Below the pieces are notes generated by a model. The model ran no database searches and was not told the DNA's origin. It saw only the letters and a program-made list of their open reading frames with translations. DNA of 64,000 nucleotides from assembly GCF_003991155.1 (NCBI RefSeq), contig NZ_CP031297.1; one strand, given 5' to 3'. Shown here in pieces: positions 18,177-51,009 of the stretch (within the stretch, counting starts at the first letter, position 1; the number at the start of each line of letters is the position of its first letter). Source of the stretch: Escherichia coli (GTDB lineage Bacteria > Pseudomonadota > Gammaproteobacteria > Enterobacterales > Enterobacteriaceae). Both the position numbers and the translations under genes were made by a program.

Positions 18177-18183
18177 TTGTCTA

Positions 18184-18241: not shown

Positions 18242-18311
18242 TGAGCAGGGGCGGGGTGTGAGGTCGTTCTAAGGCAAAATACTTTGTACTGGCAGAACAA
18301 AGAAAGAATGA

Positions 18312-18329
18312 ACTTTCACATGTGAAAGT
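18312..18329. promoter_or_regulatory. parS-like 18-bp perfect palindrome ACTTTCACATGTGAAAGT
   Basis: Exact; 2 bp upstream of ORF 18332. Confidence 0.6.
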
Positions 18330-18331
18330 TT

Positions 18332-19276
18332 TTGGGGTACGGGATGGAACAAGCAATTCAAAGTTACTTGGCTGACGACCGGCAATATCAAGACAGGATT
18401 ACCGCAGCTCTCAGCCAGGTTGAAGAGAAAGGTGCAGAGTACGAAGCTCTTTGCCAACAGCGTGCTCAGTTGGGGATCTGGCAAAAAATTATAACGTTCT
18501 GGCAGTTTCGTCGAGACATCGCCGTTATACGTTCAGCACTAAAAGGCCATAACAGCGATTTGCGGTATTTGCGCCGTGGGAGAGACCAGCTCAAAGAGGG
18601 ATTGGTTTCTCGGGCCGTGAAGCAAGCGATTGACGGTAGCCAGATTCTGGAACGAATCACCCAAGCTCAAGATAGGCTTGACGCCGCATCTCGACTCCAC
18701 GAGAGCAACAAGCGACTGGTGGACATGGGGCAAAAAGCCTTACGTGAAATCAGTGAGGCCTCTTCCAGTATTTCATCAGCACAAACAATGGAGGTTCTCG
18801 ACCTTGTGACTGACAACAAGGGCATTTCCGTCATGTCGTCGATGTCAAACTCCTCGGCCAGCAGTGAAATAGACGATGCGAAGAGAGCTGTGAAAGCCTT
18901 CGCAAATGCGCTGGGGGATCATCGTGACATTGTGGGCTCACTGCACCACTCAATGGCAACTGAGTTTATCGATCTGGGTATGGACTTTGCCGGTTTGAAT
19001 GATGGTTTCGACTTTGGGAGCGTCTTCTCGCTGTTCAGCTTGTCGTCTGCCAGTTCCTCTCTGGACAAAGTAGAGTCTCGCGTTGAATCTCTGATGCCAG
19101 ATCTAAGACGAGCCGCCTCCAATTCGGCAGCAGAGTATGCCCGTGTTAACGAAGAGTTCTTTGGCCTAAAACAACAGGCCTGTTGCCAAGTGCATGAGTT
19201 GCTGGTGACAAATGGTATAGACGTGTCAGTCAAGCGCGTTGAGTCCGCCGTGAACAGCTACAGAGTTGGAAGGTGA
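18332..19276 (+). CDS. hypothetical protein (coiled-coil-rich)
   Basis: 314-aa ORF. Confidence 0.45.
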   Translation: MGYGMEQAIQSYLADDRQYQDRITAALSQVEEKGAEYEALCQQRAQLGIWQKIITFWQFRRDIAVIRSALKGHNSDLRYLRRGRDQLKEGLVSRAVKQAIDGSQILERITQAQDRLDAASRLHESNKRLVDMGQKALREISEASSSISSAQTMEVLDLVTDNKGISVMSSMSNSSASSEIDDAKRAVKAFANALGDHRDIVGSLHHSMATEFIDLGMDFAGLNDGFDFGSVFSLFSLSSASSSLDKVESRVESLMPDLRRAASNSAAEYARVNEEFFGLKQQACCQVHELLVTNGIDVSVKRVESAVNSYRVGR

Positions 19277-19277
19277 T

Positions 19278-19307
19278 ATTTACAGCATCATAAAATGAAC
19301 TTATGAT
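19278..19307. promoter_or_regulatory. 28-bp palindrome family copy (TTTACAGCATCATAAAATGAACTTATGATG)
   Basis: Upstream of AAA+ ATPase gene. Confidence 0.5.
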
Positions 19308-19349
19308 GTGAGGTGATCAACAAGTCGAAATTTATTTAAAGGATAAGCG

Positions 19350-20813: not shown

Positions 20814-20874
20814 GCGATTAACTTTGTCATGCCGGAACACGGCATGACCCCCGAAACAACTCAGGAGTGATGAG

Positions 20875-21267
20875 ATGAGCCATATCGTAAAAGGCAAGGT
20901 GCAGGTCGCCTACAAAGACAAAGAGCTGCTGTTGAAGGCTCTGGAGGGAGTTGGCGTCGTTGTTGAAAACGAAAAGCTATACCGCGTGGGCGCTGGCTAC
21001 ACCTTCGAGAAATACCCGATTGTTCTGATCGACCAGAACAACAAGGAGCACCGGATTGGCTACAAGGAAAAAAACGGTGTTTGGGAGCAGTACCAGGAAA
21101 ACTACGGCTCTTATGGCCGCTGGACGCAGCAGGCAAGCAGCAAGGTGCAGGATCGCTACATTGCCTTCCACTACGAGCAGCAGTTGAAAGAGGAAGGTTT
21201 CAGCGTGACGGTGAAGCAGCATCACGATGGCACTTTGGAACTGGAAGCTGAGGAAGCTGTTTGGTAA
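20875..21267 (+). CDS. small conserved protein, DUF1257-like
   Basis: 130 aa; N-terminus MSHIVKGKV..LLLKALEGVG resembles DUF1257 as I recall it; own RBS. Confidence 0.5.
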   Translation: MSHIVKGKVQVAYKDKELLLKALEGVGVVVENEKLYRVGAGYTFEKYPIVLIDQNNKEHRIGYKEKNGVWEQYQENYGSYGRWTQQASSKVQDRYIAFHYEQQLKEEGFSVTVKQHHDGTLELEAEEAVW

Positions 21268-21315
21268 TAGCGCCAAGGCAATCAGATTAGTTGAACTTAA
21301 CGACGAGGTGACAAA

Positions 21316-21510
21316 GTGAAAAAGGTAAACATCAAGATCAAGGGCGGCAAGATTGCTGCCGATTTCACGGGGTTTCAGGGTAAGACCTGTGAAGCGCTGG
21401 AGCAGCGTATTCGCCCGGAAGAGCTCGAAGTCGAAGAAAAAGAGCTGAAACCCGAGTACCACTTCAATGCTGGTCAAACCCAGCACGAAACGGAACAGAA
21501 CGAATGGTGA
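21316..21510 (+). CDS. small conserved protein, DUF2997-like (GTG start)
   Basis: 64 aa; MKKVNIKIKGGKIAADFTGFQGKTC; RBS GAGGTG. Confidence 0.45.
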   Translation: MKKVNIKIKGGKIAADFTGFQGKTCEALEQRIRPEELEVEEKELKPEYHFNAGQTQHETEQNEW

Positions 21511-22688
21511 TGAGAAGGACAGGGCGCGTCCCCCTTCTTTTGCTGGTTGGTCTCATGGTCGCAGCTCCTGCGGCCTTTGCCAGTGACTTTGTGACTGGCG
21601 TAATGGTGGGGCAAATGCTCTCAGATGACTCAGGCAGCAAGAAGGTAGAGGACACTGGCCCGGAGAGCAAAACGGTCATTGATTACCATGACGGTCAGCC
21701 AGTTGTGACCAAAGTGGAGGCCTTCAAAAGCAATAAATGGCGCAAACTGGATGGCCCTCAGGGCGGCTATTTTGTTTGCCCAGGTGAATACCGTAGCTAT
21801 TCGGGAAGGCTGCGTTGTCGCGTCCATGATGACGGGCTCAATGGCTTTATGGGCGGTATGACTGATGCTCAGGAGCTACCGCTCCAAGAAGCTCTGACCA
21901 AGTTGGAAGGTAAACCCATCTCCCTGCAAACCATTGAAGTCCACGGGAACAACCTGGCAGTCAAATACCAGTTAGCACCACCAGCACAAACGCACGTCAA
22001 AACTCAGGACCTGGGGGTGGTTAAGCAAGATGGTGAAATGCAGAAGGTTGCCAGCCAACCACCAGCGCTATCCATAGAGACTGCACCAAAGAGTGAACCT
22101 CCCAAGCAGATTGGTGCTGCACAAGACACCGACCGCAATACCAGTGCGTTTCAAAGTCCGTTCGAGGAGGTAAGTGACTCCATGATCGGTCTAATGGATA
22201 GCTCTTTCGTCAAAGTCATAGCGGGGTTGATGCTGGTGTTTGGGGTTGCTAGTGGAATTATGAGGCAGAGCCCATCAGGAATTGTGATGGGGATAATGCC
22301 TGCAATTATGATCATGACCGCGCCAACGGTTATTCGTACCATGTTCGATACAGGCGCGGCCAGTACCAAGCCAGTGGAAGATAGCGGAAGCTCATTTCCT
22401 TTCTTCTTGGTGGCAATAGTGCCGGTGCTGATTTTCTTTGCCTATAGAGCTTTTATGAACAACCGGAGCGACTCCGAAATTGATGAGTTGTTAAGAGAAG
22501 CCCGACGTGCTGAAAGGGCTGAACGACCAAGCAATGAGCCTCCCTCAGTGGATGAACTCCGTGAGCGCCAGCAACAAAACCCAGAAAGAGAACCGGTGGT
22601 TGTCAGCTCATCAGCTCCGGCACCAAAGGTGCAAAAGGAAGAGCCAATCGAAGTACAGCCAGGCAAGCGCAAAATTATTTTGGATTAG
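21504..22688 (+). CDS. membrane protein with periplasmic N-domain and cytoplasmic tail ending PIEVQPGKRKIILD
   Basis: 394 aa; signal peptide, ~200-aa periplasmic region, hydrophobic segments, charged tail. Confidence 0.55.
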   Translation: MVMRRTGRVPLLLLVGLMVAAPAAFASDFVTGVMVGQMLSDDSGSKKVEDTGPESKTVIDYHDGQPVVTKVEAFKSNKWRKLDGPQGGYFVCPGEYRSYSGRLRCRVHDDGLNGFMGGMTDAQELPLQEALTKLEGKPISLQTIEVHGNNLAVKYQLAPPAQTHVKTQDLGVVKQDGEMQKVASQPPALSIETAPKSEPPKQIGAAQDTDRNTSAFQSPFEEVSDSMIGLMDSSFVKVIAGLMLVFGVASGIMRQSPSGIVMGIMPAIMIMTAPTVIRTMFDTGAASTKPVEDSGSSFPFFLVAIVPVLIFFAYRAFMNNRSDSEIDELLREARRAERAERPSNEPPSVDELRERQQQNPEREPVVVSSSAPAPKVQKEEPIEVQPGKRKIILD

Positions 22689-22699
22689 TGGGGTAGGTT

Positions 22700-23047
22700 A
22701 TGAGCAAAAAGCGCATCGTAATCAAAAATGGTGAGGTCTGCGGGTTTGCCGATGAGGTTTCCTTCAAAGGCCTTGAAGTGCAGGAATACAGTAAAACAAG
22801 GGTTTCGCGCATCGTGCCGACGAGCGGCATTCTAATGATTGCGTTCTATGTTATTCGCGGACTTTGTTCAGACGAGTCAAAGATTGCGGCATGGACTCGT
22901 GTTTGGCGTTGCCAGTGGAAGGTGCTGATCGACGGTAAAAGCTATGGACCATTCAGCAGTCGTGCGGATGCTATCTCGTTCGAGAAGGACGAGATCTACA
23001 AACAAGGCAAATTCTTTGCCGATGCCACTCACGAGGCGGCAGTATGA
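22700..23047 (+). CDS. hypothetical protein
   Basis: 115-aa ORF. Confidence 0.4.
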   Translation: MSKKRIVIKNGEVCGFADEVSFKGLEVQEYSKTRVSRIVPTSGILMIAFYVIRGLCSDESKIAAWTRVWRCQWKVLIDGKSYGPFSSRADAISFEKDEIYKQGKFFADATHEAAV

Positions 23048-23472
23048 TGACACGGGCGGCTATGGCCGCGCTGTTATCCGCGTTGGTAATAGGCCTTGTG
23101 TCTGATTTGTCCGCACAAGAGCTGGTGGTAAGCCAGGTGGCTATAGACAAGTCCACTGAGGTGGAGAAAGAAGCTACCTTCCACAACCGCAAGTGGGTGT
23201 TAAGGACGGGGCAGGTTAGTGGATTCTTCATCTGCCAAGGAGATAACAAAGACATTTACTACCGGCATGACAGGGTGGGCGCTCACTGCCAGAAGACATC
23301 GACTGGGTGGCGCAATGTACTGGGTCTCAGGGACGATGTTCCGGAAGTTGAGCTGAGCGTGTACCTGGGGACCGTTGAAGGTGTCCCCGTGAAAGTCCTT
23401 CATCAGGAAGTGGATGGTTACGATCTGAAAGTGCAGTACAAGGTTGCACGTAAAGGGTCAGCAAATGAGTGA
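23044..23472 (+). CDS. secreted hypothetical protein
   Basis: 142 aa; signal peptide MMTRAAMAALLSALVIGLVSDLSAQ. Confidence 0.45.
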   Translation: MMTRAAMAALLSALVIGLVSDLSAQELVVSQVAIDKSTEVEKEATFHNRKWVLRTGQVSGFFICQGDNKDIYYRHDRVGAHCQKTSTGWRNVLGLRDDVPEVELSVYLGTVEGVPVKVLHQEVDGYDLKVQYKVARKGSANE

Positions 23473-24028
23473 GAGTGTGCGTCGGTCAACGCCGATGGTA
23501 AAGATTAAAATCCTGCCGAGTTTCGTAGGGGTTCCCTTCCCGTCGGTGCTACTTATCGTTGCGGGGCTCCTTAATGGCCCTTTGTGGGGCTTTGCCGCAT
23601 TCGTCTTTCATATCGTCATCAAGCGGTACATCTACAGAGAATACCGGAGGTTGCCATATCCGATGCCAACCGGCTCAAGGCCTATGGATGAGTTGAGCGA
23701 GCTCCTTGTAAAGGGGATACCGGAGGAATTTTTCCGGCGGCTTGACGCAGCTTGCAGCTCTGATGCGTCAGTACAAATAACCTGCCCAAAGAAATACCGG
23801 CTGCTCAAAATGTCGTTGAATCGCTATGCCAACCGCGCTGGTTGTTACCCGCAGTTCCGGGAGGGGGATGAAATAGCGATTGAGGTAACAGAGCAGAGAC
23901 CAAGAAAAGCAGGAGCAGGGAAGGGCTTTCCAAGTATTCAAGTTCTGAAAGCGTCAGAGGGTGTTCTGAGTGAACCGGAGCAGCCTATCGAAATTCAGAA
24001 AGATAAGCGCAAGATTATCTTGGATTGA
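23465..24028 (+). CDS. membrane protein with C-terminal tail PIEIQKDKRKIILD
   Basis: ~187 aa from ATG 23465; N-terminal TM helices; tail paralogous to 21504..22688. Confidence 0.5.
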   Translation: MSESVRRSTPMVKIKILPSFVGVPFPSVLLIVAGLLNGPLWGFAAFVFHIVIKRYIYREYRRLPYPMPTGSRPMDELSELLVKGIPEEFFRRLDAACSSDASVQITCPKKYRLLKMSLNRYANRAGCYPQFREGDEIAIEVTEQRPRKAGAGKGFPSIQVLKASEGVLSEPEQPIEIQKDKRKIILD

Positions 24029-24039
24029 GGTGGGTTGGA

Positions 24040-24609
24040 ATGCGGTCATTTTTATACAGAATATTGCTTCTTTGCTTCGTCATTATCGTCCAGATAGGGC
24101 TAATCGCCATTGATGCGAGCCCGTTGGTTGTTGCTATGTTCCTCTCGCTAACAGCTTTAGTCGCTGGGGTCTGGATGGCGTACCTTCATTCCCGATTTTT
24201 GATGGCGGTGACTCCAGTAGTTATCTCTGTGCTAATGGCGACCCTCGCCATGAAAATGTTTGAGCCGAGACTCTTTGTTTCTGCCAGCGAAAAAGGCTGG
24301 TTCCCTTTGTCATTGTTCGTCTCGATACCGTTTTACTTCTACTTGAGTTACTTGCTTGAGATAGAGGAGAAGAGACGTACATTCCGGGCCAATGTGATTG
24401 GGTTTTTGCGTGGAGTTTCGGAAGAGATCCGTCGTTCAACCAGAGAGCATAGAGATCAAGGTGAGATAAGACACGGTGGAACAGAGCTGGGGAGTATTGA
24501 CGAACTACAAAGGGGCGAGGCCAAAGAGCCAGAAGTCATCAGCTCTACATCGGACCAGAAAGAACAAGGCACTCCCAAGCGAGACAAGAGAAAAATCATT
24601 CTGGACTGA
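24040..24609 (+). CDS. membrane protein with C-terminal tail KRDKRKIILD
   Basis: ~189 aa from ATG 24040 (RBS GAGGTG); several TM helices; same terminal motif. Confidence 0.5.
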   Translation: MRSFLYRILLLCFVIIVQIGLIAIDASPLVVAMFLSLTALVAGVWMAYLHSRFLMAVTPVVISVLMATLAMKMFEPRLFVSASEKGWFPLSLFVSIPFYFYLSYLLEIEEKRRTFRANVIGFLRGVSEEIRRSTREHRDQGEIRHGGTELGSIDELQRGEAKEPEVISSTSDQKEQGTPKRDKRKIILD

Positions 24610-24611
24610 AC

Positions 24612-25157
24612 ATGGAACAAATCAGAAAAGGCTTAACCCTCGAATACGCAAAAGAGAAGCGTGAGAAGCTCTTGGCGGAGCTCAAATCAGATGAACACTA
24701 CAGCCAGACTGAAACAGTAGCCTATGGGCACCACGACCCGCTCAGCGTTCCTGTGGCAGCCTGCGATAGTTGTCATGGCCGGGCGCAAATGCAGAAGGTT
24801 ATAGGTCCTCCTGTGCGCTGGAATATGGTCTGCCTGGGTTGTGGGAAGGCGATCCAACAAATCCAGAAACGACCGTGGCAAGCAGCAATGGCGTGGAACC
24901 AAATTAACTTGGGAACACAGGACTACAGACAACTGCCCCTCTTTGGACTTGGGAGTCTGTCTCCTGAATCAGCAAGACAGAGAATGGTGGGAATACGCAG
25001 GAACCTGGAGCTGAGAAAGAGCCTCGCCGGTATCGAGAGGACGATAGCCCACAAGGAAGGTCAACGCCCACCAGGGAAAGAGTACCAGCAACGACTGGAA
25101 GCATATCTGCAATGGGCCATGCTGGCGCTGAGGTTGCTCAAAGTCAAAGCAAGTTAG
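24612..25157 (+). CDS. hypothetical protein with Cys4 zinc-ribbon-like motif
   Basis: 181 aa; CDSCHG ... CLGCG. Confidence 0.45.
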   Translation: MEQIRKGLTLEYAKEKREKLLAELKSDEHYSQTETVAYGHHDPLSVPVAACDSCHGRAQMQKVIGPPVRWNMVCLGCGKAIQQIQKRPWQAAMAWNQINLGTQDYRQLPLFGLGSLSPESARQRMVGIRRNLELRKSLAGIERTIAHKEGQRPPGKEYQQRLEAYLQWAMLALRLLKVKAS

Positions 25158-25176
25158 TGGTGAGAAGGAAGAGAGA

Positions 25177-25206
25177 ACCCGGTACTGTAAAGCGCCGGGT
25201 TTTTTA
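25177..25206 (+). terminator. rho-independent terminator
   Basis: ACCCGG...CCGGGT stem followed by T6. Confidence 0.5.
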
Positions 25207-25216
25207 TGCCGCCCTG

Positions 25217-25244
25217 TTTACAGTATCAAAAAGTGATGCTATAA
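25217..25244. promoter_or_regulatory. 28-bp palindrome family copy (TTTACAGTATCAAAAAGTGATGCTATAAA)
   Basis: Upstream of ParB-like gene 25274. Confidence 0.5.
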
Positions 25245-25273
25245 AGTGAGCAAGTCACAAGGAGAACCAACGA

Positions 25274-26212
25274 ATGGCTGTTATCAACTCACTCCGCGCT
25301 CTCAAAGGCGTAACCGCCCCCGAAGAACTGAAAAAAGGGGATGGATTCACTATCTCTCCTCAGCTTCTGCTGGAGGAAGAAGGGTTTAACACCCGTGGCG
25401 CTTTCTGCGAGGACTACTACGAGCGCCCGGACATCAAAGCTGGTATTCGAGTGCTGGCCGATGCTTACAAGCGTGGCGACTATGTTCCGCCGATCATCGT
25501 CAAAGTTATCGACGGAAAGGTGTATGTCCGTGAAGGTCATCGCCGTCGCCGCGCCATCCTGCTTGCTATAGAGGAAGGTGCCGACATCCAGTTCGTGCAG
25601 GTCGTAGAGCACAAGGGCGATGAAGCCGAACAGAGCCTTCTGATCGCCACCAGCAACGATGGGCTCCCTCTTTCTCCACTTGAGCGAGCCGTGATCTACG
25701 CTCGGCTTGCAAACTGGGGGTGGAGCGACCAGATGATTGCCCAACGTGTTGGCCGCTCGGCTGAGCACGTTCGTATCGCCCGTGCCCTTTTGGAGATGCC
25801 TCTGGAACTGAAACGGATGATTCAGGAAGGCTCTGTGGCTGCCACCTACGCTCAGGAGCTCTACAACGAGCACGGCACCAACGCTGTTGAGATCCTGAAA
25901 AAGGCGCAGGAAGAACAGGCCAGTGGCAATGACGGCAAGAAGGCCCCGAAAAAACTGACCAAAAAGTCTGTCGAGAAAGGTCCCCGCCTGGGCAAAAAGG
26001 TGGTTGAAGCCATGCACCGAGGCGTGAGCTCTATTACCAGTCGTCTGGACAACATCAAGCCGAACGATGACGGTGAAACGTTCACCCTTACCCTGAGCCG
26101 GGAAGATGTTGATGCGTTTCAGGAGCTGAAAGCCAAGCTGGCGGAGCTGGAGCCCAAAACTGACGAGTCCAATGAAGACCAGCAAGAGCTGGATTTGGCG
26201 GGTAATCAGTAA
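25274..26212 (+). CDS. ParB/Srx-domain protein (second, orphan ParB-like; KorB-like candidate)
   Basis: 312 aa; ParB N-domain motif VREGHRRRRAIL, HTH region, Lys-rich C-terminus; no adjacent ParA. Confidence 0.7.
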   Translation: MAVINSLRALKGVTAPEELKKGDGFTISPQLLLEEEGFNTRGAFCEDYYERPDIKAGIRVLADAYKRGDYVPPIIVKVIDGKVYVREGHRRRRAILLAIEEGADIQFVQVVEHKGDEAEQSLLIATSNDGLPLSPLERAVIYARLANWGWSDQMIAQRVGRSAEHVRIARALLEMPLELKRMIQEGSVAATYAQELYNEHGTNAVEILKKAQEEQASGNDGKKAPKKLTKKSVEKGPRLGKKVVEAMHRGVSSITSRLDNIKPNDDGETFTLTLSREDVDAFQELKAKLAELEPKTDESNEDQQELDLAGNQ

Positions 26213-26368
26213 TGGGGCGCTGTACTGTTGAGGATGCCATCCAGTTGCTGGAAGGGGGAACCATTGTTGCGGTCGTACCGGCGTCATCCGGACCAGATAC
26301 GCTGGTGGTTTCCTCTATCAGGCTTGAATCCGGACTGACAGTACAGTTTTCCCCTCCAGCGGCAGCCA

Positions 26369-26647
26369 GTGTCAGTGTTCAGCTCGCGGAGCTCGATGAT
26401 GAACAGTGACAAGAAATCGTCTGAACTAGCCAGACTGAGGCGTCAGCATCAGCTAGTTTGCTCTGTCATCGCAGCCTTGCTCATCTGTGCAGGTATATAT
26501 GGGACCGTTGCACGTTTGGGCTTCATCCTGATGGCGCCATTGTTTGTTATCGCCTTAGGTGTGTTAGTCGATGCGTTCCTGCCAAGGGTAAGTTGGTTCT
26601 TCTGTGTGCGGGACGTGAGAGACATATTTGGGTGGAGAAAACGATAG
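26369..26647 (+). CDS. small membrane protein
   Basis: 92 aa, hydrophobic; contains an isolated iteron copy. Confidence 0.3.
   Translation: MSVFSSRSSMMNSDKKSSELARLRRQHQLVCSVIAALLICAGIYGTVARLGFILMAPLFVIALGVLVDAFLPRVSWFFCVRDVRDIFGWRKR
26495..26514. repeat. isolated iteron copy (ATATATGGGACCGTTGCACG)
   Basis: Near-consensus iteron ~24.5 kb from main array. Confidence 0.5.
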
Positions 26648-26889
26648 TGGCGAAGTTGAAGGTTTATGGCGGGATCACTTATGGGGCCGAGGGGCAGTTC
26701 AGAACTGTCGTTGCGGCCACAAGTAAGAGCAAGGCTGCTTCAATTCTGAATATCACGATTTACCAGATGAATAGCTGGTGGACGGAGACTTTTAACAAGT
26801 ACGAGGTCGAGGCGGCGATGTCTGAGCCGGGGGCTATTTTTTCAAAGCCTCTCGATGGCAGAGACCCATTTGTAAAGCAGGAAGGATAA
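26647..26889 (+). CDS. hypothetical protein (GTG start)
   Basis: ~80 aa; GTG overlaps previous stop. Confidence 0.3.
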   Translation: MAKLKVYGGITYGAEGQFRTVVAATSKSKAASILNITIYQMNSWWTETFNKYEVEAAMSEPGAIFSKPLDGRDPFVKQEG

Positions 26890-26891
26890 TT

Positions 26892-27254
26892 GTGAGAAGT
26901 GTTTTTGTATGGTTGAAGGCCGGGGCAATACTGGCTTTCCTATTCTTCGGTATTGCTGGTGCTGTCAACCGGGTCTATTGGGTTAACAGCCAAGGTTTGA
27001 GCCAGGGGTCGATGTCATCCACATTGGTTAAAGAAAAGTTTGGCCTAGACCTTGGTGCAATGTGCCGTTATGACAAACCCCAGCATGTCGAGTTCAAAGT
27101 CCTTCCTGATCAGACAATCCAGTTCCGCTGCTCATGGTTTGAAGGTGGCGGATTAACCTGGTGGCCTTTCTACACCGAGCATGATGTAAAGAGCGCCGAG
27201 GCGACCTCTGTGCTCAATGACATATTCCAGGGTACGGAGGGGCATGATGAGTAG
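26892..27254 (+). CDS. hypothetical membrane/secreted protein
   Basis: 120 aa with N-terminal hydrophobic segment. Confidence 0.4.
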   Translation: MRSVFVWLKAGAILAFLFFGIAGAVNRVYWVNSQGLSQGSMSSTLVKEKFGLDLGAMCRYDKPQHVEFKVLPDQTIQFRCSWFEGGGLTWWPFYTEHDVKSAEATSVLNDIFQGTEGHDE

Positions 27255-28491
27255 CCAGCTAGAACTCTTTCATGTCCAAGAGGCGTATGCCAAGGCCGAT
27301 AAGCCGTTATCGAATGAGGAGCTCTACGATTCGGTGGCAGAGCTCGCTGGAATCCCGAAAAGCGCTCTGAATGAACAAAGTGAAATTGGCAAGGCAAAGG
27401 TCAAGCGGAGCAAGCTGAAAAGACAGATACGCTGGTATCAGCAAACCCTCAAGTCGATGAACCTTCTCCAGAAGGTGGACGGCGAGCGGGGTGTCTGGGA
27501 GCTCTCAAGCAAAACCAAGAAGGGCCTGCATGAAGCGCTAGGTGGCGTTCGACTGGTCGCTTATTCAACAAATCTTGGGCTGGCGGTGTGGTCAAACAAC
27601 AAGAGCTTTTTCTCTGACCTCGATGAGCCGGTGCATCTGTGTGTGACATCTCCGCCGTTCCCGCTCCGTATACAGCGTGGCTATGGAAACGTTGATGAAG
27701 CCAAATGGGTGGATTTCATTACTCAGGCACTCGAACCGATAGTCAAGAACCTGGTGCCAGGAGGAAGCGTTGTCCTGAATGTCAGCAATGACATATTCGA
27801 GGCCAAGAGCCCCTCCAGATCTCTCTACGTTGAGCGAATGGTGCTGGCGCTCCATGATCGGCTTGGGCTCTCTCTCATGGATAGATGGCCGTGGATCAAC
27901 CTGTCAAAACCACCAAGTCCGACCCACTGGGCTTGTGTGAACCGTTACCAGTTGTGTGCCGGGTGGGAGCCTGTTTATTGGTTCACCAACGACCCTGACA
28001 GGGTGCGTTCTGACAACAGAAGGGTCCTGATCCCTCATACAGAGAAACATCAGAAGCTGATGGCCCAAGGCGGTGATAACAGAGTGGTCAGTTATGGTGA
28101 CGGGGCATATCGACTGAGAGGGAACGCATTCTCTAACGTCACGGAAGGACGGATACCGAAAAACGTTATCCAGCGCGGCCACCGTTGTGCGGATACTCTG
28201 GAGCTTCGGAGAATCGCTAGAGAACTGGGGTTGCCACCGCACCCGGCAATGTTCCCAACAGACATACCTGAAATGGCTATCCGCTTTCTGACGGAAGAGG
28301 GCGACCTTGTTGTTGATCCGTTCAGTGGGTCGAATAAGAGCGGGTTGGCCGCAGAAAGGAATAACCGGCGCTGGATCGCCTGTGACATCATTCTTGAGTA
28401 CATTCGCACCCAGGCGGAAATGTTCACCGGCTTTGATGGATTTTGGATGAACCCGGCCATAGCAGCAGTGGGCGGGGGAGCGTTGAATTAA
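27244..28491 (+). CDS. DNA methyltransferase, beta-class N6-adenine or N4-cytosine (orphan)
   Basis: Motif IV TSPPF precedes motif I VVDPFSGSNKSG; RBS GGAGG before ATG 27244; no adjacent endonuclease. Confidence 0.8.
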   Translation: MMSSQLELFHVQEAYAKADKPLSNEELYDSVAELAGIPKSALNEQSEIGKAKVKRSKLKRQIRWYQQTLKSMNLLQKVDGERGVWELSSKTKKGLHEALGGVRLVAYSTNLGLAVWSNNKSFFSDLDEPVHLCVTSPPFPLRIQRGYGNVDEAKWVDFITQALEPIVKNLVPGGSVVLNVSNDIFEAKSPSRSLYVERMVLALHDRLGLSLMDRWPWINLSKPPSPTHWACVNRYQLCAGWEPVYWFTNDPDRVRSDNRRVLIPHTEKHQKLMAQGGDNRVVSYGDGAYRLRGNAFSNVTEGRIPKNVIQRGHRCADTLELRRIARELGLPPHPAMFPTDIPEMAIRFLTEEGDLVVDPFSGSNKSGLAAERNNRRWIACDIILEYIRTQAEMFTGFDGFWMNPAIAAVGGGALN

Positions 28492-28498
28492 GAGAACA

Positions 28499-28954
28499 AT
28501 GCCCATGAATTTAAGTATTATCGCAAGAGTCTTGCGCCAATTGGCAATTATTTTTGTCCTCTCCGTGCTTCTTGTGGCCGGATATATCTACTATGCCGGT
28601 AAACAACATCAGCAGGCAGCAATCAACTTTTGGGGTGAGCAATACCAGCCTGATGCCATCTCGACGCAAATTGATTGGGGGTTTATCGGTAATTGGGTTA
28701 TTCCTCGCGGGGGGCCAATTATTTCTCCGGGCATTGCTGGAGTGTGTCCCAATACACCACTTCCCGTTGTGCCTCTTAAAACTGGTCCTGATGGCCGGGG
28801 TTATGTTCTCTGTGGCATTGGAAGTGAGGCTGTCGCTACCAGCTTTGATGTCAATGACATCCAGGATGAAGAGATACGAAACACATTAAAAACGATGTTT
28901 GAGGAAGAATTTGAAAAAACTGTTAAGGGGGATAAATGGACACTCAAGAACTGA
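28499..28954 (+). CDS. hypothetical membrane protein
   Basis: 151 aa, N-terminal TM helix. Confidence 0.4.
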   Translation: MPMNLSIIARVLRQLAIIFVLSVLLVAGYIYYAGKQHQQAAINFWGEQYQPDAISTQIDWGFIGNWVIPRGGPIISPGIAGVCPNTPLPVVPLKTGPDGRGYVLCGIGSEAVATSFDVNDIQDEEIRNTLKTMFEEEFEKTVKGDKWTLKN

Positions 28955-32788: not shown

Positions 32789-32847
32789 CTCCCCGCTGTC
32801 CACCTCGCACACTCCAAACGCCCAAACGCCCAAATAACTTGTCTATC

Positions 32848-32862
32848 TGCCCAAAATGGGCG
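32848..32862. promoter_or_regulatory. TGCCCAAAATGGGCG motif
   Basis: Identical to copy at 18227. Confidence 0.4.
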
Positions 32863-32921
32863 CGTAAGCGTCCGATAGAAAGTAATTGTTAGTGAGATAT
32901 TGACTACACGGAATATGGCTA

Positions 32922-34761: not shown

Positions 34762-35078
34762 TTGTCGTGACAGAACAAACCAATAAGAAATTGATGCTGG
34801 ATGAGTCTCCAGATATGCCCCTGCAATTCAAGTGGAGAAAGTTTGGTGGTGCGATTTTTACTGCCACGCAAACAATGGAGCACGTCAAGGAAGGACGTAA
34901 GCTCGGGCCGACTCCAGCAGGGATGCTACCTCAAGAAGTGTGGCTGAACCGCCTGATCGCTATGGAAGAAACCCTGCCACGAGGGAAGTTTTTTGACAGA
35001 TTCCGCCGCCGCGACAAAAACGAGCAGTATGACTTGGCCGCCGATCATCTCCGTCTTGTCGGACAGAAAAAGCGATAG
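34746..35078 (+). CDS. hypothetical protein
   Basis: 110-aa ORF. Confidence 0.4.
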   Translation: MDGGVIVVTEQTNKKLMLDESPDMPLQFKWRKFGGAIFTATQTMEHVKEGRKLGPTPAGMLPQEVWLNRLIAMEETLPRGKFFDRFRRRDKNEQYDLAADHLRLVGQKKR

Positions 35079-35086
35079 GGGGATAG

Positions 35087-35587
35087 ATGAAAGCCCAGGC
35101 ATACCCACCATCAGTCATTCGTAAAGGCGCTGTGTTGTACGCAGCCCTTTATTACATCTCTGATGATGATAAAGCAAAGGTCGAGGTTACAGAGTGGATA
35201 GTTCGCTCTATTCAGAAACGACGCAACTCAACCAGCGATCAACGCTATGTCAATCTTGCCCAAAAGTTAGATGGGATTACGTGGGGGAAAAGGTCACGGA
35301 AGAATGGGGACTTTGGTTGGTTGCCATCTATACCGAGCTGGTGCTTGAAGCAGTTCCGGGAAGGTGGCGAATTGCCTTTTGGCGTTTATACGACGCGACT
35401 GGCCGCTCTCAAGTTTGCGAAAGTCAGCTTGCAGGAAGAGGTCCAATATTGCGAGGCCGAGCTGAAAAAGGCTCAGACAGAAGAGGATACTCAGGAACTC
35501 CAAGAGGAGCTGGCGGAGAACCAGAGACTTCTGAAAGCTGCTGGAGCAATGGTGAAGCGCGAGCAAAACAAGAAGAAAAGAGGTTGA
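35087..35587 (+). CDS. hypothetical protein with coiled-coil C-terminus
   Basis: 166-aa ORF. Confidence 0.4.
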   Translation: MKAQAYPPSVIRKGAVLYAALYYISDDDKAKVEVTEWIVRSIQKRRNSTSDQRYVNLAQKLDGITWGKRSRKNGDFGWLPSIPSWCLKQFREGGELPFGVYTTRLAALKFAKVSLQEEVQYCEAELKKAQTEEDTQELQEELAENQRLLKAAGAMVKREQNKKKRG

Positions 35588-39451: not shown

Positions 39452-41644
39452 TCAATCCATAAAGTCCGACTTTTTGAAGGGCATAGTGCCTTTGCAATCG
39501 GGATACGCTGTGCAGCCCCAGAACTTAGAGGCTCGTTTCTTGCCAGGGGCTTTTCCTTTCCTGAGACGCATCGGGCTACCGCAATCTGGGCAGTCTGGAC
39601 AATCCTCCGCCGCGATACGTTTCTCGGGTTTCCCTCGGTTGTCTGGGAACGTCTTCTTGCAAGCCTCGTTCTGGCAGCCCCAGAAAAAACCGTTCTTCCC
39701 TTTGATCCGGTGCATCTCTCCACCGCAGTTGAAGCATTCGTGTGAAGGAGGCTTCGCGCCCTCGAAGGCTTTAGCCATCGCGCCACCTTCTTTGGTCAGA
39801 ACCGGTGCGGCCACTTTGAGCTGCTCAACCATTTGGCAGATCCAGGTGGAAATCTGCTTCATGAAGACAGACATGTTCCCGGAGCCGGAGGCAACTTTCT
39901 CAAGCTCCTGCTCCCAAGCCGCAGTCATGCCGGGTGATTTGATGGCTGGTGGAAGCACTGCTATAAGCGCATGAGCCTTATCAGTTGCAAGCAGTACCTT
40001 TTTCTGACGCTTGAAGTAGCCTTTATCAACAGCGCCCTGGATGATGCTTGCGCGTGTTGCTGGAGTGCCTAAACCGGCTGTGTCTTTGAGGATTTGTTTG
40101 AACTTCTCCTCAGTCACGAACCGGGCAATGTTCTCCATCGCGGCAAGCAATGTGGCTTCGGTGAAGTGCGGTGCTGGCCGCGTCATTTTGTTTGCCAGCT
40201 CGGCCCCATTCAGCAAGGCAGGTTCGCCCTGGCTAACCCTGGGGAGCTTCTCTTGTTCAACCGGCGCGTCGGTGTCTTCCCCCTCGTCCTTGGGACTGCT
40301 TTCACTATCAGAAGCAAACAAAACCTTCCAGCCTTGTTTGGTAGGTGTCTTACCAGCGGACGCAAAGAGGTGACGCCCACACTGCACCTCGATGGAGGTT
40401 TTGGTGAACTCGAACTCGCTGTAGAACTGCGCGATGTAGAAACGACGGATGGCGTCGTAAAGATTGAACTCGATCTCAGACATGGCACTGATGTCTGTTC
40501 TGGCCGGTGTTGGAATGATCGCGTGGTGCGCGGTCACTTTGGCGTCATTGAATACCCTGGCCTTGCGATGAGGATCTGCGCCAGCCACCAGCCCAGAGAC
40601 GTTCTGATCGGACAAAATGAGCGCCTGGAGAATGTCCGGAATGTCTTCCTTTTGGCTCTCGGGTAGATAACGACTGTCAGTACGAGGGTAGGTGGTCGCT
40701 TTGTGCGTCTCGTACAGAGCTTGAGCTGCATCCAGTACCTGCTGAGCTGTGTATCCCCATCGTTTGCTCGCGTATTGTTGCAGCGACGTTAGATCGAAGG
40801 GGAGGGGGGCTGACTCTTTACCTGGTTTGGTTTCTGCTTTGCTGATAACAGCATTGGCACCATTGACCTGGGAGGCTACCTGCTCGGCATAGGCCTTATT
40901 GACGCACCGGCCTTGCTCGTCACTGCACTCTTCTGGTGGTATCCATTGGGCGGCAAACTGTCCATTCTGTACGGACACGTTCACACCCAGAGTCCAGTAT
41001 GGTGAGGGGGTGAAACCGGCGATCTCTCGGTCCCGTTGACAAACAAGAGCGACGGTTGGGGTGATAACCCTGCCAACGTGAAGAGTGTGGTTGAAGCCGA
41101 CATCTCGGGCCAGCACTGTGTAGAGGCGGCTCACGTTCATGCCTACCAACCAGTCAGCGCGTTGCCGTGCCAATGCGGCGTAGTAGAGTGAGACCGTATC
41201 CTTGCCATCCTTTACGTTGTTCAGCGCTTTCTTGATGCTTGACTCATCGAGAGCCGTCAAACAAACTCGGCGAATAGGGCCAGAGTAGCGGAATCGATCC
41301 AGAAGCGAACGGGCGATAGCCTCACCTTCTCGGTCGTAGTCCGTTGAGATGTAGATGGTGCTCGCCTTTTTGACCAGTCCCTCAACAATTTTGTACTGTT
41401 TGAACGCACTCTTGCGAACGTTGTACCGCCATGACTCTGGTGCAATAGGGAGGGTCTCCAGTGACCATGACTTGTAGCGTTCGTCATAATCGTCTGGCAT
41501 ATACAATTCCAGCAGGTGGCCGAACGCCCACGTAATAACGCGGTTTCCTCCATCATGGAGAAATCCATCACCTCGTTGGGAGGCCTTCATTACGCCAGCC
41601 AAATCTTTTGCCTGAGAAGGCTTCTCGCAGATATAAAGGTCCAT
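39452..41644 (-). CDS. topB: DNA topoisomerase III
   Basis: 730 aa; TOPRIM N-terminus MDLYICEKPSQAKD, type IA topoisomerase core, C-terminal Cys4 zinc ribbons. Confidence 0.9.
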   Translation of the reverse strand: MDLYICEKPSQAKDLAGVMKASQRGDGFLHDGGNRVITWAFGHLLELYMPDDYDERYKSWSLETLPIAPESWRYNVRKSAFKQYKIVEGLVKKASTIYISTDYDREGEAIARSLLDRFRYSGPIRRVCLTALDESSIKKALNNVKDGKDTVSLYYAALARQRADWLVGMNVSRLYTVLARDVGFNHTLHVGRVITPTVALVCQRDREIAGFTPSPYWTLGVNVSVQNGQFAAQWIPPEECSDEQGRCVNKAYAEQVASQVNGANAVISKAETKPGKESAPLPFDLTSLQQYASKRWGYTAQQVLDAAQALYETHKATTYPRTDSRYLPESQKEDIPDILQALILSDQNVSGLVAGADPHRKARVFNDAKVTAHHAIIPTPARTDISAMSEIEFNLYDAIRRFYIAQFYSEFEFTKTSIEVQCGRHLFASAGKTPTKQGWKVLFASDSESSPKDEGEDTDAPVEQEKLPRVSQGEPALLNGAELANKMTRPAPHFTEATLLAAMENIARFVTEEKFKQILKDTAGLGTPATRASIIQGAVDKGYFKRQKKVLLATDKAHALIAVLPPAIKSPGMTAAWEQELEKVASGSGNMSVFMKQISTWICQMVEQLKVAAPVLTKEGGAMAKAFEGAKPPSHECFNCGGEMHRIKGKNGFFWGCQNEACKKTFPDNRGKPEKRIAAEDCPDCPDCGSPMRLRKGKAPGKKRASKFWGCTAYPDCKGTMPFKKSDFMD

Positions 41645-41877
41645 TAAGCAGCTCCTCTCATCTTTGATTCCAGATTCGCCAGCTCAGTCCAGCTTTGAGC
41701 CAGACCTTTGACTTCGGGGTAGTCTCTGGAGAGGTTTTCGAGGACTCCAGAAATGACATAGGCCGCTTCGCTGGAATTACCCCTCGAACCGGCCTCCTGG
41801 AGCATGATTAATAAAGCGTCGAAGAGCTCAGCCTTACGGCCTAGCTCTGTCTGGTTTCTTATTTCAGAGCTTTGCAT
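41644..41877 (-). CDS. small hypothetical protein
   Basis: 77-aa ORF overlapping topB start codon. Confidence 0.3.
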   Translation of the reverse strand: MQSSEIRNQTELGRKAELFDALLIMLQEAGSRGNSSEAAYVISGVLENLSRDYPEVKGLAQSWTELANLESKMRGAA

Positions 41878-42476
41878 GGGTTCACCACTGAATAGGGACG
41901 CACGGACTCGCGCACAATGCGGCGATCTGCGTCAGTTACAGCCTGACTGGTGCAAAAGTGCGTCCAGGCATTCAGATAATCTTTATAGGTGTGGGTAGGT
42001 GGTATGCAGCCGGTTACAACGTCCTTGGGGATGTTTGTGGTTCCCTCGGCTTCCACAAAGCGCCAATCGTGCTCGTCCATACCTTTGCCACCATCGCAAT
42101 AGCGTTCCCAGCGTGACAACTCGTACAGCGAGTAGCCTTTGCCTTTATTCATGGACTTGAAGGTATTGATGGCTTCGTTGACATCCCCGTGCTGTTTGAT
42201 CCCTGCTGGAGTTTTATCTGAACCAGCGGAGTCATCTTTGACCTTGTTCATCGTTGCGCTGACATTACCGTCGCCCAGCACATGGATATAACCAGGTTGA
42301 CGTAATGCAGCACCACCGCGCCCCATGTTGTCCCATGCCATCGACAGTTCCCGGCTAACTCGGGCAGGTTTGTCATTTTCGGCAGGGGCAGTCTGGGGCT
42401 GAGGCTTTTGCTCGGGGGCGTTAGAGGCACACCCGGCCAGAATTGCCACTCCCAGAATTGCTATCAGTTGTCTCAT
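41859..42476 (-). CDS. putative lipoprotein
   Basis: ~206 aa from ATG 42476 (RBS GAGGA); lipobox LAGC. Confidence 0.5.
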   Translation of the reverse strand: MRQLIAILGVAILAGCASNAPEQKPQPQTAPAENDKPARVSRELSMAWDNMGRGGAALRQPGYIHVLGDGNVSATMNKVKDDSAGSDKTPAGIKQHGDVNEAINTFKSMNKGKGYSLYELSRWERYCDGGKGMDEHDWRFVEAEGTTNIPKDVVTGCIPPTHTYKDYLNAWTHFCTSQAVTDADRRIVRESVRPYSVVNPCKALK

Positions 42477-42550
42477 CGTGTCGTTCCTCATAAAAAATTG
42501 TCGATGAGCCCATTCTAAAAGGGGGGGGATGGAAAGCTGGTTTCTCAAAC

Positions 42551-42564
42551 TGCCCAAATTGGAC
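42551..42564. promoter_or_regulatory. TGCCCAAATTGGAC motif (third family variant) in traI upstream region
   Basis: Divergent region between lipoprotein gene and traI. Confidence 0.35.
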
Positions 42565-42643
42565 AGATAGGCGTGTGTGCGATCTAAAGGTGTTTTGAGA
42601 GCATGTAGCGACGAGAAATACGATAGGAATATGGTCAACCTAC

Positions 42644-45616
42644 ATGCTGAAAGCCCTTAACAAGTTATTTGGTGGGCGAAGTGGAGTGATCGAGACCGCG
42701 CCGAGCGTCAGAGTGTTGCCGCTTAAAGACGTGGAAGATGAAGAAATCCCTCGATACCCACCTTTTGCCAAGGGCCTGCCAGTGGCCCCACTAGACAAGA
42801 TACTGGCAACCCAAGCTGAACTGATTGAGAAAGTGCGGAACTCTCTCGGTTTCACTGTGGACGACTTCAACCGGCTTGTTTTGCCGGTGATCCAGCGGTA
42901 TGCCGCGTTTGTTCACCTGTTGCCAGCTTCCGAATCACACCACCACCGTGGCGCTGGTGGTCTGTTCCGACATGGGCTTGAAGTGGCCTTCTGGGCAGCT
43001 CAGGCATCTGAGTCAGTTATCTTTTCCATCGAGGGGACGCCTCGTGAACGCCGTGACAATGAGCCGCGTTGGAGACTGGCGAGCTGTTTCTCCGGGCTGC
43101 TGCATGATGTGGGTAAACCGCTCTCGGATGTGTCCATTACGGACAAAGACGGGTCAATCACATGGAACCCGTATTCGGAGTCACTTCATGACTGGGCACA
43201 CCGTCACGAAATCGACCGTTACTTTATCCGGTGGCGCGACAAGCGACACAAAAGACATGAGCAATTCTCGCTGCTGGCGGTGGATCGAATTATTCCGGCT
43301 GAGACTCGGGAGTTTCTGTCCAAGTCTGGCCCGTCCATCATGGAAGCGATGCTGGAAGCTATCTCAGGAACCAGCGTCAATCAGCCTGTGACCAAGCTGA
43401 TGCTTCGCGCTGACCAAGAGAGCGTCTCACGGGACCTTCGCCAGAGTCGTCTCGATGTGGACGAGTTCTCCTATGGTGTGCCTGTCGAGCGGTACGTGTT
43501 CGATGCCATCCGCCGCCTGGTTAAAACCGGAAAATGGAAGGTCAATGAGCCAGGCGCGAAAGTCTGGCACCTCAACCAAGGTGTATTCATTGCCTGGAAA
43601 CAGCTTGGGGACCTTTATGACTTGATCAGCCACGACAAGATCCCCGGTATTCCACGAGACCCTGACACACTGGCCGACATTCTCATCGAACGTGGTTTTG
43701 CTGTACCAAACACGGTGCAGGAGAAGGGTGAACGTGCGTACTACCGCTACTGGGAAGTTTTGCCTGAGATGCTCCAGGAGGCGGCGGGATCGGTGAAGAT
43801 CTTGATGCTCCGACTCGAATCAAACGACCTGGTGTTTACGACTGAGCCTCCTGCGGCTGTTGCTGCGGAAGTTGTTGGTGATGTTGAGGACGCTGAGATT
43901 GAGTTCGTTGATCCTGAGGAAGTCGATGACGACCAAGAGGAAGATGTGTCAGCTCTGAACGATGACATGTTGGCCGCAGAGCAGGAAGCAGAGAAAGCTC
44001 TAGCTGGTCTTGGCTTTGGTGATGCGATGGAGATGCTGAAAAGCACCTCAGATGCTGTCGAGGAGAAACCAGAGCAAAAAGATGCTGGATCAACGGAATC
44101 ATCTAAGCCTGACGCTGGCAAGAAGGGTAAGCCGCAGAGCAAACCGGGCAAAGCAAAACCGAAGAGTGATACAGAGAAACAACCCCACAAACCAGAGGCA
44201 AAAGAGGATTTGTCCCCTCAGGACATTGCCAAAAACGCACCACCTTTGGCAAACGACAATCCGTTACAAGCACTCAAGGATGTTGGGGGTGGACTGGGGG
44301 ACATCGACTTTCCGTTTGACGCATTCAGCGCATCGGCAGAGACAGCCAGCACTGACGCAACAAACTCAGAAATCCCAGATGTGGCAATGCCCGGAAAGCA
44401 AGAGAAGCAGCCAAAACAGGACTTCGTTCCACAAGAACAAAACTCCCTGCAGGGCGATGACTTTCCAATGTTCGGTAGTTCTGATGAACCGCCATCATGG
44501 GCGATTGAGCCGCTCCCTATGCTGACTGACGCACCAGAACAAACAACACCAGCGCCAGCAATGCCACCTACGGACAAACCTAATCTGCATGAGAAAGACG
44601 CAAAGACCTTACTCGTTGAGATGTTAGCCGGGTACGGAGAAGCATCGGCGTTGCTTGAACAAGCGATCATGCCTGTTTTGGAAGGTAAAACGACGCTGGG
44701 CGAAGTCCTATGCCTGATGAAGGGTCAAGCCGTCATTTTGTACCCGGATGGCGCTCGGTCGCTGGGTGCGCCGTCAGAGGTTCTCTCGAAGCTGTCCCAC
44801 GCCAACGCGATTGTTCCAGACCCGATTATGCCAGGTCGCAAAGTTCGTGATTTCAGCGGAGTGAAGGCAATTGTACTGGCGGAGCAGCTTTCAGATGCAG
44901 TCGTAGCGGCCATTAAGGATGCCGAGGCGTCAATGGGGGGATACCAGGATGCCTTTGAGCTCGTCTCTCCCCCTGGCTTGGATGCAAGCAAGAATAAGTC
45001 TGCACCGAAACAACAAAGCCGAAAAAAGGCGCAGCAGCAGAAGCCTGAGGTTAACGCCGGTAAACCCTCGCCTGAACAAAAGGCGAAAGGTAAGGACTCC
45101 CAGCCACAGCAGAAGGAGAAGAAGGTCGATGTTACTTCTCCGGTTGAAGAGCCGCAGCGCCAGCCGGTCCAAGAAAAACAGAACGTGGCTCGCCTTCCTA
45201 AGCGGGAGGTTCAACCAGTGGCTCCTGAGCCCAAAGTTGAGCGTGAGAAGGAATTGGGACACGTCGAGGTGCGAGAAAGGGAAGAGCCAGAGGTTAGGGA
45301 GTTTGAGCCGCCTAAGGCGAAAACAAACCCGAAAGACATCAACGCGGAAGATTTCTTGCCGTCTGGTGTTACGCCTCAGAAAGCACTCCAGATGCTCAAG
45401 GACATGATCCAAAAACGCTCGGGCAGATGGCTCGTGACACCTGTCCTGGAAGAGGATGGCTGCTTAGTAACCAGTGACAAAGCCTTCGACATGATTGCCG
45501 GTGAAAACATCGGCATCAGCAAACACATCCTCTGCGGGATGCTGAGCCGGGCACAGAGACGGCCTTTGCTCAAGAAACGTCAGGGAAAACTGTATTTAGA
45601 GGTAAATGAAACATGA
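42644..45616 (+). CDS. traI: MOB_H-family conjugative relaxase (TraI, HD-domain type)
   Basis: 990 aa; HD-type metal motif HHHRGAGGLFRHGLEV near N-terminus; long acidic/Lys-rich linker; stop overlaps traD start. Confidence 0.8.
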   Translation: MLKALNKLFGGRSGVIETAPSVRVLPLKDVEDEEIPRYPPFAKGLPVAPLDKILATQAELIEKVRNSLGFTVDDFNRLVLPVIQRYAAFVHLLPASESHHHRGAGGLFRHGLEVAFWAAQASESVIFSIEGTPRERRDNEPRWRLASCFSGLLHDVGKPLSDVSITDKDGSITWNPYSESLHDWAHRHEIDRYFIRWRDKRHKRHEQFSLLAVDRIIPAETREFLSKSGPSIMEAMLEAISGTSVNQPVTKLMLRADQESVSRDLRQSRLDVDEFSYGVPVERYVFDAIRRLVKTGKWKVNEPGAKVWHLNQGVFIAWKQLGDLYDLISHDKIPGIPRDPDTLADILIERGFAVPNTVQEKGERAYYRYWEVLPEMLQEAAGSVKILMLRLESNDLVFTTEPPAAVAAEVVGDVEDAEIEFVDPEEVDDDQEEDVSALNDDMLAAEQEAEKALAGLGFGDAMEMLKSTSDAVEEKPEQKDAGSTESSKPDAGKKGKPQSKPGKAKPKSDTEKQPHKPEAKEDLSPQDIAKNAPPLANDNPLQALKDVGGGLGDIDFPFDAFSASAETASTDATNSEIPDVAMPGKQEKQPKQDFVPQEQNSLQGDDFPMFGSSDEPPSWAIEPLPMLTDAPEQTTPAPAMPPTDKPNLHEKDAKTLLVEMLAGYGEASALLEQAIMPVLEGKTTLGEVLCLMKGQAVILYPDGARSLGAPSEVLSKLSHANAIVPDPIMPGRKVRDFSGVKAIVLAEQLSDAVVAAIKDAEASMGGYQDAFELVSPPGLDASKNKSAPKQQSRKKAQQQKPEVNAGKPSPEQKAKGKDSQPQQKEKKVDVTSPVEEPQRQPVQEKQNVARLPKREVQPVAPEPKVEREKELGHVEVREREEPEVREFEPPKAKTNPKDINAEDFLPSGVTPQKALQMLKDMIQKRSGRWLVTPVLEEDGCLVTSDKAFDMIAGENIGISKHILCGMLSRAQRRPLLKKRQGKLYLEVNET

Positions 45617-50207: not shown

Positions 50208-50254
50208 TTTTCGCCTCCCGCTCTTATCATCTCCTCGAATAAACCTCCATAAAG

Positions 50255-50269
50255 TGCCCAAAATGGGCC
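50255..50269. promoter_or_regulatory. TGCCCAAAATGGGCC motif
   Basis: Third family copy upstream of T4SS genes. Confidence 0.4.
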
Positions 50270-50499
50270 GTAACAGCACTGTTCCTAGATTGATCAATTA
50301 AGAGACGATTACTCCGTGATGACGACAAGTTATTTGGAGGGTCTATGTCCGCACAAGCTCACGTCAGAGAAAGCGAAAGCTCATCTGGTTCATTCATCTC
50401 CTGGCAGTTCCTTGTCTGGCAGGTGATGTTCGTTATAGGTGTTGTTGCAGGGATGAACCTGGAACACGCATTCAATTTTCTAGGTTAATGGGAGGAAGT

Positions 50500-50911: not shown

Positions 50912-50924
50912 TTTGTCGCTGGAA

Positions 50925-50940
50925 GTGCCCGAAAAGGGCG
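50925..50940. promoter_or_regulatory. GTGCCCGAAAAGGGCG motif (third family variant)
   Basis: Upstream of ORF 51010. Confidence 0.35.
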
Positions 50941-51009
50941 CGAAGCCGTGGCAGAAAATCAGTGACCCTGAATGAGAATACAGGCCACTAGGAAAAGAAG
51001 AGGGTTGCT

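Follow-up and report, generated by a model that had tools for sequence, protein, structure and literature searches.

Does the short stretch of DNA upstream of the relaxase gene traI of an IncC plasmid hold the origin of transfer (oriT), or is it a promoter region, or does it serve as both? The question is raised by a 64,000-nucleotide stretch of an Escherichia coli contig, referred to throughout as the window, in which the 167 bp at 42477-42643 separate a minus-strand lipoprotein gene from traI. The original prediction had delimited this gap correctly and had proposed it as a candidate oriT/promoter region. We regard it as very nearly certain that the locus consists of two back-to-back promoters which share one operator and one activator, AcaCD, and that these are the already characterised Pvcrx059 and PtraI. 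The binding of AcaCD, both transcription start sites and the dependence on AcaCD are experimental results obtained on pVCR94deltaX, and the present plasmid would be expected to behave in the same way; the identity of the locus, the score of its box, its geometry and its phylogenetic footprint were established in the present analysis.

The window carries the backbone of an IncC (IncA/C2) resistance plasmid and starts at repA, its position 1 corresponding to position 817, the start of repA, in pVCR94deltaX (NC_023291.1). A 1.6-kb query around the locus matched 972 plasmid records, 901 of them at no less than 99% identity, and hundreds of conjugative IncC plasmids, from hosts that include Klebsiella, Salmonella and Escherichia, are 100% identical to it. 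The intergenic region itself, with a GC content of 45.5%, aligns base for base with pVCR94deltaX 34946-35112 (offset +7531) and is identical to it at 165 of 167 positions, the two substitutions being at 42492 (C to A) and, within the spacer of Pvcrx059, at 42529 (G to A, which makes the G9 of pVCR94 into G8A). To its left lies the vcrx059 homologue (41859-42476, minus strand), a gene for a 205-aa lipoprotein recognised by the lipobox ILAGC in its translation and by the annotation of identical plasmids; the N-terminus of the product, MRQLIAILGVAILAGC, is the lipobox signal, and a Shine-Dalgarno sequence, GAGGAA, can be read at 42484-42489 on the minus strand, 7 nt from the ATG. A longer, TTG-initiated version of this reading frame (41859-42638) was considered and excluded, since the minus-strand start site at 42504-42506 is downstream of that TTG. 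The lipoprotein gene is followed by a 77-aa ORF and topoisomerase III (39452-41644, Pfam hits), the latter included in the AcaCD-induced vcrx059-vcrx056 operon of which vcrx059 is the first gene (PMC4207636, Table S3). To the right, traI (42644-45616, plus strand) encodes a 990-aa MOBH relaxase (Pfam TraI_2, 297 bits; NCBIfam MobH, 427 bits against a cut-off of 200) and is followed by the coupling protein gene traD. A scan of 41500-43500 against Rfam for structured RNA returned only a noise-level miRNA match (E = 0.73). Farther along the window, the BLAST match to pVCR94deltaX is interrupted for ~1.36 kb at 55730-57087, inside the vcrx076 homologue, a very large gene with Ig-like domains; this surface protein gene would thus seem to have a divergent or recombined internal segment.

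The equivalent locus of pVCR94deltaX has been dissected by ChIP-exo, 5'-RACE, RNA-seq and lacZ fusions and found to contain two AcaCD-dependent divergent promoters (Carraro 2014, PMC4207636); the vcrx059-traI pair is one of three divergent AcaCD-dependent promoter pairs (Durand 2021, PMC8373056). The AcaCD ChIP-exo peak on pVCR94deltaX has its summit at 35025, a height of 8308 and motifs on both strands, published as 35010-35038 (minus) and 35015-35043 (plus) (PMC4207636, Table S3). In the window these motifs become two overlapping 29-nt AcaCD boxes, one directed toward vcrx059 (42542-42570, minus strand; MAST p = 3.6e-7) and one toward traI (42546-42574, plus strand; MAST p = 9.9e-10); the minus-strand register of Table S3 translates to 42541-42569 and was shifted by 1 here to align the cores. 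Both boxes contain, on either strand, the core near-palindrome GCCCAAATTGGAC (42552-42564), which matches the consensus GCCCNDWWWGGGC (PMC8373056) at 12 of 13 positions, one half-site deviating from GGGC (GGAC/GTCC). The slightly longer segment CTGCCCAAATTGGACAG (42550-42566), within which this core lies, is almost its own reverse complement. A core of the same kind has been footprinted in Pxis of SGI1 (PMC4605294), and the box is identical in pVCR94deltaX.

To score the box independently of its own published description, we took the 19 published pVCR94deltaX boxes, left out those of traI and vcrx059, and built a position weight matrix (PWM) from the remaining 17. The matrix gives 24.9 bits on the minus strand and 23.0 bits on the plus strand, values that fall among the 20.4-32.2 bits of the training sites; the maxima of 200 shuffled windows average 13.2 bits, which puts the box of the locus far above chance. 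The motif variant noted at 42551 by the original prediction is thus real, and it is the AcaCD operator at 42550-42566. The same scan of the window returned seven further boxes, at 5649-5677, 32839-32871, 50250-50278, 50917-50949, 54139-54167, 55199-55227 and 60836-60868, which are the published promoters of vcrx012, vcrx035/036, vcrx068, traL, traV, vcrx076 and dsbC (PMC4207636) and probably make up the rest of the motif family to which the variant at 42551 had been assigned. Another strong AcaCD-type box, GTAATTGCCCAAAATGGGCGTGAGCAGGG, is found at 18218-18250 on both strands (20.3 bits on the plus strand, 22.4 bits on the minus strand), ~95 bp upstream of a same-strand block of genes that begins at 18344 and encodes hypothetical proteins, an AAA ATPase, a ParB-like protein and a DNA methyltransferase. 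This box is missing from the pVCR94deltaX ChIP-exo list because it sits within a 14.5-kb backbone segment (14411-28925) that pVCR94deltaX does not have, and its sequence predicts an additional AcaCD-controlled operon, starting from 18344, in the plasmids that keep the segment.

The arrangement of the two promoters around the box follows the fixed geometry of AcaCD promoters. Transferred from 5'-RACE on pVCR94deltaX (PMC4207636, Table S3), the start site of Pvcrx059 falls at 42504-42506 on the minus strand (pVCR94deltaX 34973-34975) and that of PtraI at 42609-42611 on the plus strand (pVCR94deltaX 35078-35080), both ~52 bp from the centre of the box dyad at 42558. By sequence, Pvcrx059 has the -10 element TAGAAT (42512-42517, minus strand) and PtraI the extended -10 element TG-a-GAGCAT (42596-42604, plus strand), and the two are in register with their counterparts in the other 15 AcaCD promoters. 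Neither promoter has a credible -35 element (the position reads GTGTGC at PtraI), as would be expected because the promoters are activator-dependent. The distance from the end of the box to the start site is 35-37 nt in all mapped promoters (n=17) and 36 nt for both Pvcrx059 and PtraI. Protection by RNA polymerase begins at -42, 4 bp beyond the consensus palindrome (PMC8373056), and this rule, applied to the core at 42552-42564, predicts starts at 42610 and 42506, which match both mapped sites.

PtraI drives the traI(vcrx060)-vcrx069 operon (PMC4207636). In RNA-seq, the value for vcrx059 goes from 0 in the delta-acaCD strain to 297 once AcaCD is provided, and that for traI from 9 to 964 (PMC4207636, Table S3). 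A PtraI-lacZ fusion is inactive without acaCD and is not activated by SetCD (PMC4207636); the primers used for it map to 42489-42507 and 42606-42626, so that the tested fragment lies wholly inside 42477-42643.

The leader of traI has features of its own. A purine-rich Shine-Dalgarno sequence at the normal distance is missing, the nearest AGGA (42625-42628) being 15 nt from the ATG at 42644, and an out-of-frame mini-ORF of 9 codons (ATG at 42631, MVNLHAESP, stop at 42658-42660) overlaps the start of traI. The mini-ORF sequence ATGGTCAA is kept in six of the eight lineages compared below and reads ATGGTTAA in pAhD4-1; its ATG is kept in 7/8, and its stop codon is not kept. The relaxase may be weakly translated or its translation coupled, or these features may have no meaning; judged from the sequence, the poor Shine-Dalgarno may point to additional translational control of traI.

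The box, the two -10 blocks and the start codons are what evolution has preserved. We aligned the region from eight lineages (IncC, pVCR94, IncA, Shewanella baltica, Xenorhabdus, pAsa4-type Aeromonas, pAhD4-1 and Edwardsiella ictaluri), among which overall identity falls to 72-79%, with a mean column identity of 61%. Three blocks of at least 9 nt show no change at all: CCCATTCTA (42509-42517), which includes the -10 element of Pvcrx059, TCAAACTGCCCAAATTGGACAG (42545-42566, 22 nt), which encloses the core of the box, and TGAGAGCATGTA (42596-42607), which includes the extended -10 element of PtraI. Elsewhere, invariance is limited to short runs (e.g., TACATG at the start codon of traI) and isolated columns. 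From the box to the leftward -10 element there are 27 nt in every lineage except Xenorhabdus, which has 1 nt fewer. Across the eight lineages, the operator and the two -10 blocks are kept while their flanks diverge, the footprint of purifying selection on the operator.

Three other explanations of the locus have to be weighed against this arrangement, of which oriT is the one that its position next to a relaxase gene invites. As a general expectation, oriT is often found beside the relaxosome genes, a position first predicted for IncA/C plasmids as well (Hegyi 2017, PMC5587640); on this explanation 42477-42643 would be, or contain, an oriT with a nic site for the adjacent MOBH relaxase TraI. 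Mobilisation in trans, the very check put forward in the original prediction, has been published for a sister plasmid: R16a failed to mobilise an 11.5-kb fragment with the equivalent intergenic region (pJKI854), transfer being <1.1e-7 while that of the helper was 3.5e-4 (PMC5587640). The intergenic region is retained in pJKI854, as the homology arm of the knockout primer begins at the ATG of traI, and HpaI sites at window positions 38288 and 49757 bracket 11.5 kb, in agreement with the published "ca. 11.6 kb". Screens of R55 fragment libraries yielded nothing but Mob1, which lies upstream of mobI, and the recombination site Mob2 (PMC5587640). The true IncA/C oriT occupies R55 positions 139-323, directly upstream of mobI (PMC5587640), and MobI recruits TraI to it (reviews and later work); because its deletion abolishes transfer (<6.9e-8) even with MobI in trans (PMC5587640), there is a single oriT and no second one. 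Nor does the locus resemble an oriT of the MOBH12 family by any of the features compared here. Its neighbours are vcrx059 and traI, mobI being located just before repA and outside the window, and it has neither the AT-richness (GC 45.5%, against 35% in the AT-rich oriT) nor the IR1-IR6 array and 14-bp direct repeats of the family. When the second proposed check, comparison with a mapped MOBH oriT, is carried out, the 498-bp intergenic region upstream of mobI in pVCR94deltaX aligns with the locus only over its AcaCD promoter part (Pvcrx152) and not over the oriT core, leaving a single chance-level 9-mer. That 9-mer, GATAGGAAT (42622-42630, in the 5' leader of traI), is also the core of the two essential, overlapping 14-bp direct repeats of the true oriT, and the idea that MobI might bind it was considered; chance alone would give ~0.6 common 9-mers, the pAsa4-type, pAhD4-1 and Edwardsiella plasmids do not conserve it, and the changed oriT repeat of the pAsa4-type plasmids has no matching change in their traI leader, so that it was set aside as a coincidence. 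A search of 42477-42643 for 12- to 14-mers of the oriT core found none, the sole exact 12-mer in the window being a chance match inside traI at 43799. The short inverted repeats mentioned in the original prediction are present (TCTCAAA/TTTGAGA and TTTCTC/GAGAAA, with arms 44-66 nt apart), but their number is at chance level relative to shuffles (P = 0.88 for 6-mers and 0.65 for 7-mers), and the single-stranded DNA folds no better than shuffles (z = +0.49), which leaves the locus with no hairpin or unusual structure of the kind sought in an oriT. The literature cited on the MOBH12 oriT family gives no nic position. The promoter half of the original proposal thus stands as the mapped Pvcrx059 and PtraI, and its oriT half falls with the unmobilised fragment: for the sister plasmids an oriT upstream of traI is refuted, and for the present one we give it next to no credence.

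The remaining two explanations concern how the promoters work. Just as little probability attaches, in our judgement, to the idea that traI and the lipoprotein gene are served by ordinary constitutive sigma-70 promoters and that the palindrome is there by accident or binds a repressor. The -10 element of Pvcrx059 is near consensus and a consensus scan finds one sigma-70-like site, TTGAGA-18-TACGAT, at 42595-42624, but one match against 0.4 expected is not significant, and the mapped traI start (42609-42611) is inside this site rather than downstream of it. Neither promoter has a usable -35, the palindrome fits the activator box family at 23-25 bits, and both the inactivity of PtraI-lacZ and the RNA-seq values of 0 and 9 in the delta-acaCD background (PMC4207636) are at odds with constitutive expression. 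Somewhat less remote, and still very unlikely, is a slippage-prone rheostat in the G8 run at 42521-42528, in which the gain or loss of 1 bp would shift the phasing of box and -10 element and uncouple the lipoprotein/topoisomerase III operon from traI despite the shared operator. The run, which the original prediction had rightly noticed, reads C8 on the sense strand of Pvcrx059 and falls exactly within the spacer that separates TAGAAT from the AcaCD box (~-16 to -23); the spacer of Xenorhabdus is 1 nt shorter, and length variants occur in plasmids from unrelated hosts. Four short-query BLAST counts over 971 PLSDB records gave G8A in 881, G7A in 16 (several genera), G9A in 4 and G9 in 1, with the IncA-type G7AG in about 50; the exact 67-nt sequence around the run and half of the box is found in 881/971, so that the G8A of the window is the common version and the G9 of pVCR94deltaX is unique in the collection. 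Against the rheostat, exactly G8A is found in those 881 records, the ~2% of variants by one base in either direction is the level produced by homopolymer errors in long-read assembly, and the homopolymer is interrupted in IncA (G7AG), Shewanella (G6AGA), the pAsa4-type plasmids (GGGGGAGG), pAhD4-1 (GATGGAG) and Edwardsiella (GGGTGGGG) while the spacer stays 27 nt. The run is the sole G or C run of at least 8 in the window, but base-shuffled windows have ~2, and it is therefore not statistically remarkable. The length variants, though they fall in a promoter spacer, are probably homopolymer sequencing errors, and there is no good evidence of programmed slippage at the G8 tract.

A separate observation on spacer composition can be placed here. 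Approximately 7 of the 17 mapped AcaCD promoters (vcrx059, vcrx076, dsbC, traF, vcrx128, vcrx152 and traN) have a C-rich, CTCCC-like stretch on the sense strand just upstream of the -10 element, with the G8 run as the most extreme case. The idea that AcaCD promoters in general have C-rich spacers was rejected, the mean composition being barely skewed (C 0.27 vs 0.24).

We found no evidence that contradicts the divergent AcaCD promoters, and the following mechanism can be proposed for them. AcaCD, the master activator of the plasmid and a heteromeric member of the FlhDC family, would be supplied from elsewhere on the IncC plasmid, near traFHG (acaDC is at about 117-118 kb in pVCR94deltaX, beyond the 64-kb window), and would bind the near-palindrome whose centre is at 42558. 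Since this box is acceptable in both orientations, it could recruit RNA polymerase on either side, presumably in a class II manner in which the activator abuts the missing -35 element; this contact mechanism is inferred from footprints. Rightward transcription would start at ~42610 from the TGnGAGCAT extended -10 element and run into traI-traD-traJ and the genes downstream, and leftward transcription would start at ~42505 from the TAGAAT -10 element and run into the lipoprotein/topoisomerase III operon. Both promoters would be silent without AcaCD, and relaxase synthesis would therefore be tied to the switch to transfer competence. The G8 run would be a mere spacer of the leftward promoter, and 42477-42643 would have no cis-acting role in DNA transfer.

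Pvcrx059 and PtraI are already known, and the window adds nothing new on their biology; the practical value of the result is one of correct annotation, in that what precedes the relaxase gene in IncC plasmids is a regulatory switch and not a transfer origin. It also advises caution in predicting oriT from proximity to a relaxase gene, as the MOBH12 oriT travels with mobI, ~40 kb from traI, and this is relevant to software for the detection of mobilisable DNA. The AcaCD box is, in turn, a useful tag, since genomic islands which hijack IncC plasmids (SGI1, MGIVmi1 and others) can be recognised by the same motif.

Among known systems, the closest is Pvcrx059/PtraI of pVCR94deltaX itself (PMC4207636, Fig. 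3E, Table S3), which is the same locus with the same genes, the same 167-bp gap and identical box, -10 elements and spacing, and which differs from the window only at 42492 and 42529. The other AcaCD/SgaCD promoters, such as PtraL, PtraN and Pxis of SGI1 (PMC4605294, PMC8373056), have in common with it the 29-nt motif with a core of the same consensus type, a box that ends 35-37 nt before the start, a -35 element that is weak or missing, and a class II-type architecture; the locus differs from them in that one box serves two productive start sites, an arrangement found in only three divergent pairs on the plasmid, vcrx035/036, vcrx059/traI and acaB(vcrx086)/vcrx087 (PMC8373056). More distant parallels are SetCD of the SXT/R391 ICEs and the class II flagellar promoters of FlhDC, which likewise involve a heteromeric activator of the FlhDC family and sites that abut the -35 position, and SXT/R391 has a syntenic traI-traD-traJ gene order; AcaCD and SetCD are nevertheless not interchangeable, recognise unrelated motifs, and PtraI does not respond to SetCD (PMC4207636). 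The oriT of IncA/C plasmids (PMC5587640) and that of SXT/R391 (Ceccarelli 2008, in PMC4542580) resemble the locus in that they, too, lie between divergent genes and overlap promoters. The true oriT has a high AT content, combines the IR1-IR6 array with overlapping 14-bp direct repeats and stands beside mobI, whereas the region upstream of traI has none of these; the intergenic region that contains oriT also holds an AcaCD promoter, Pvcrx152.
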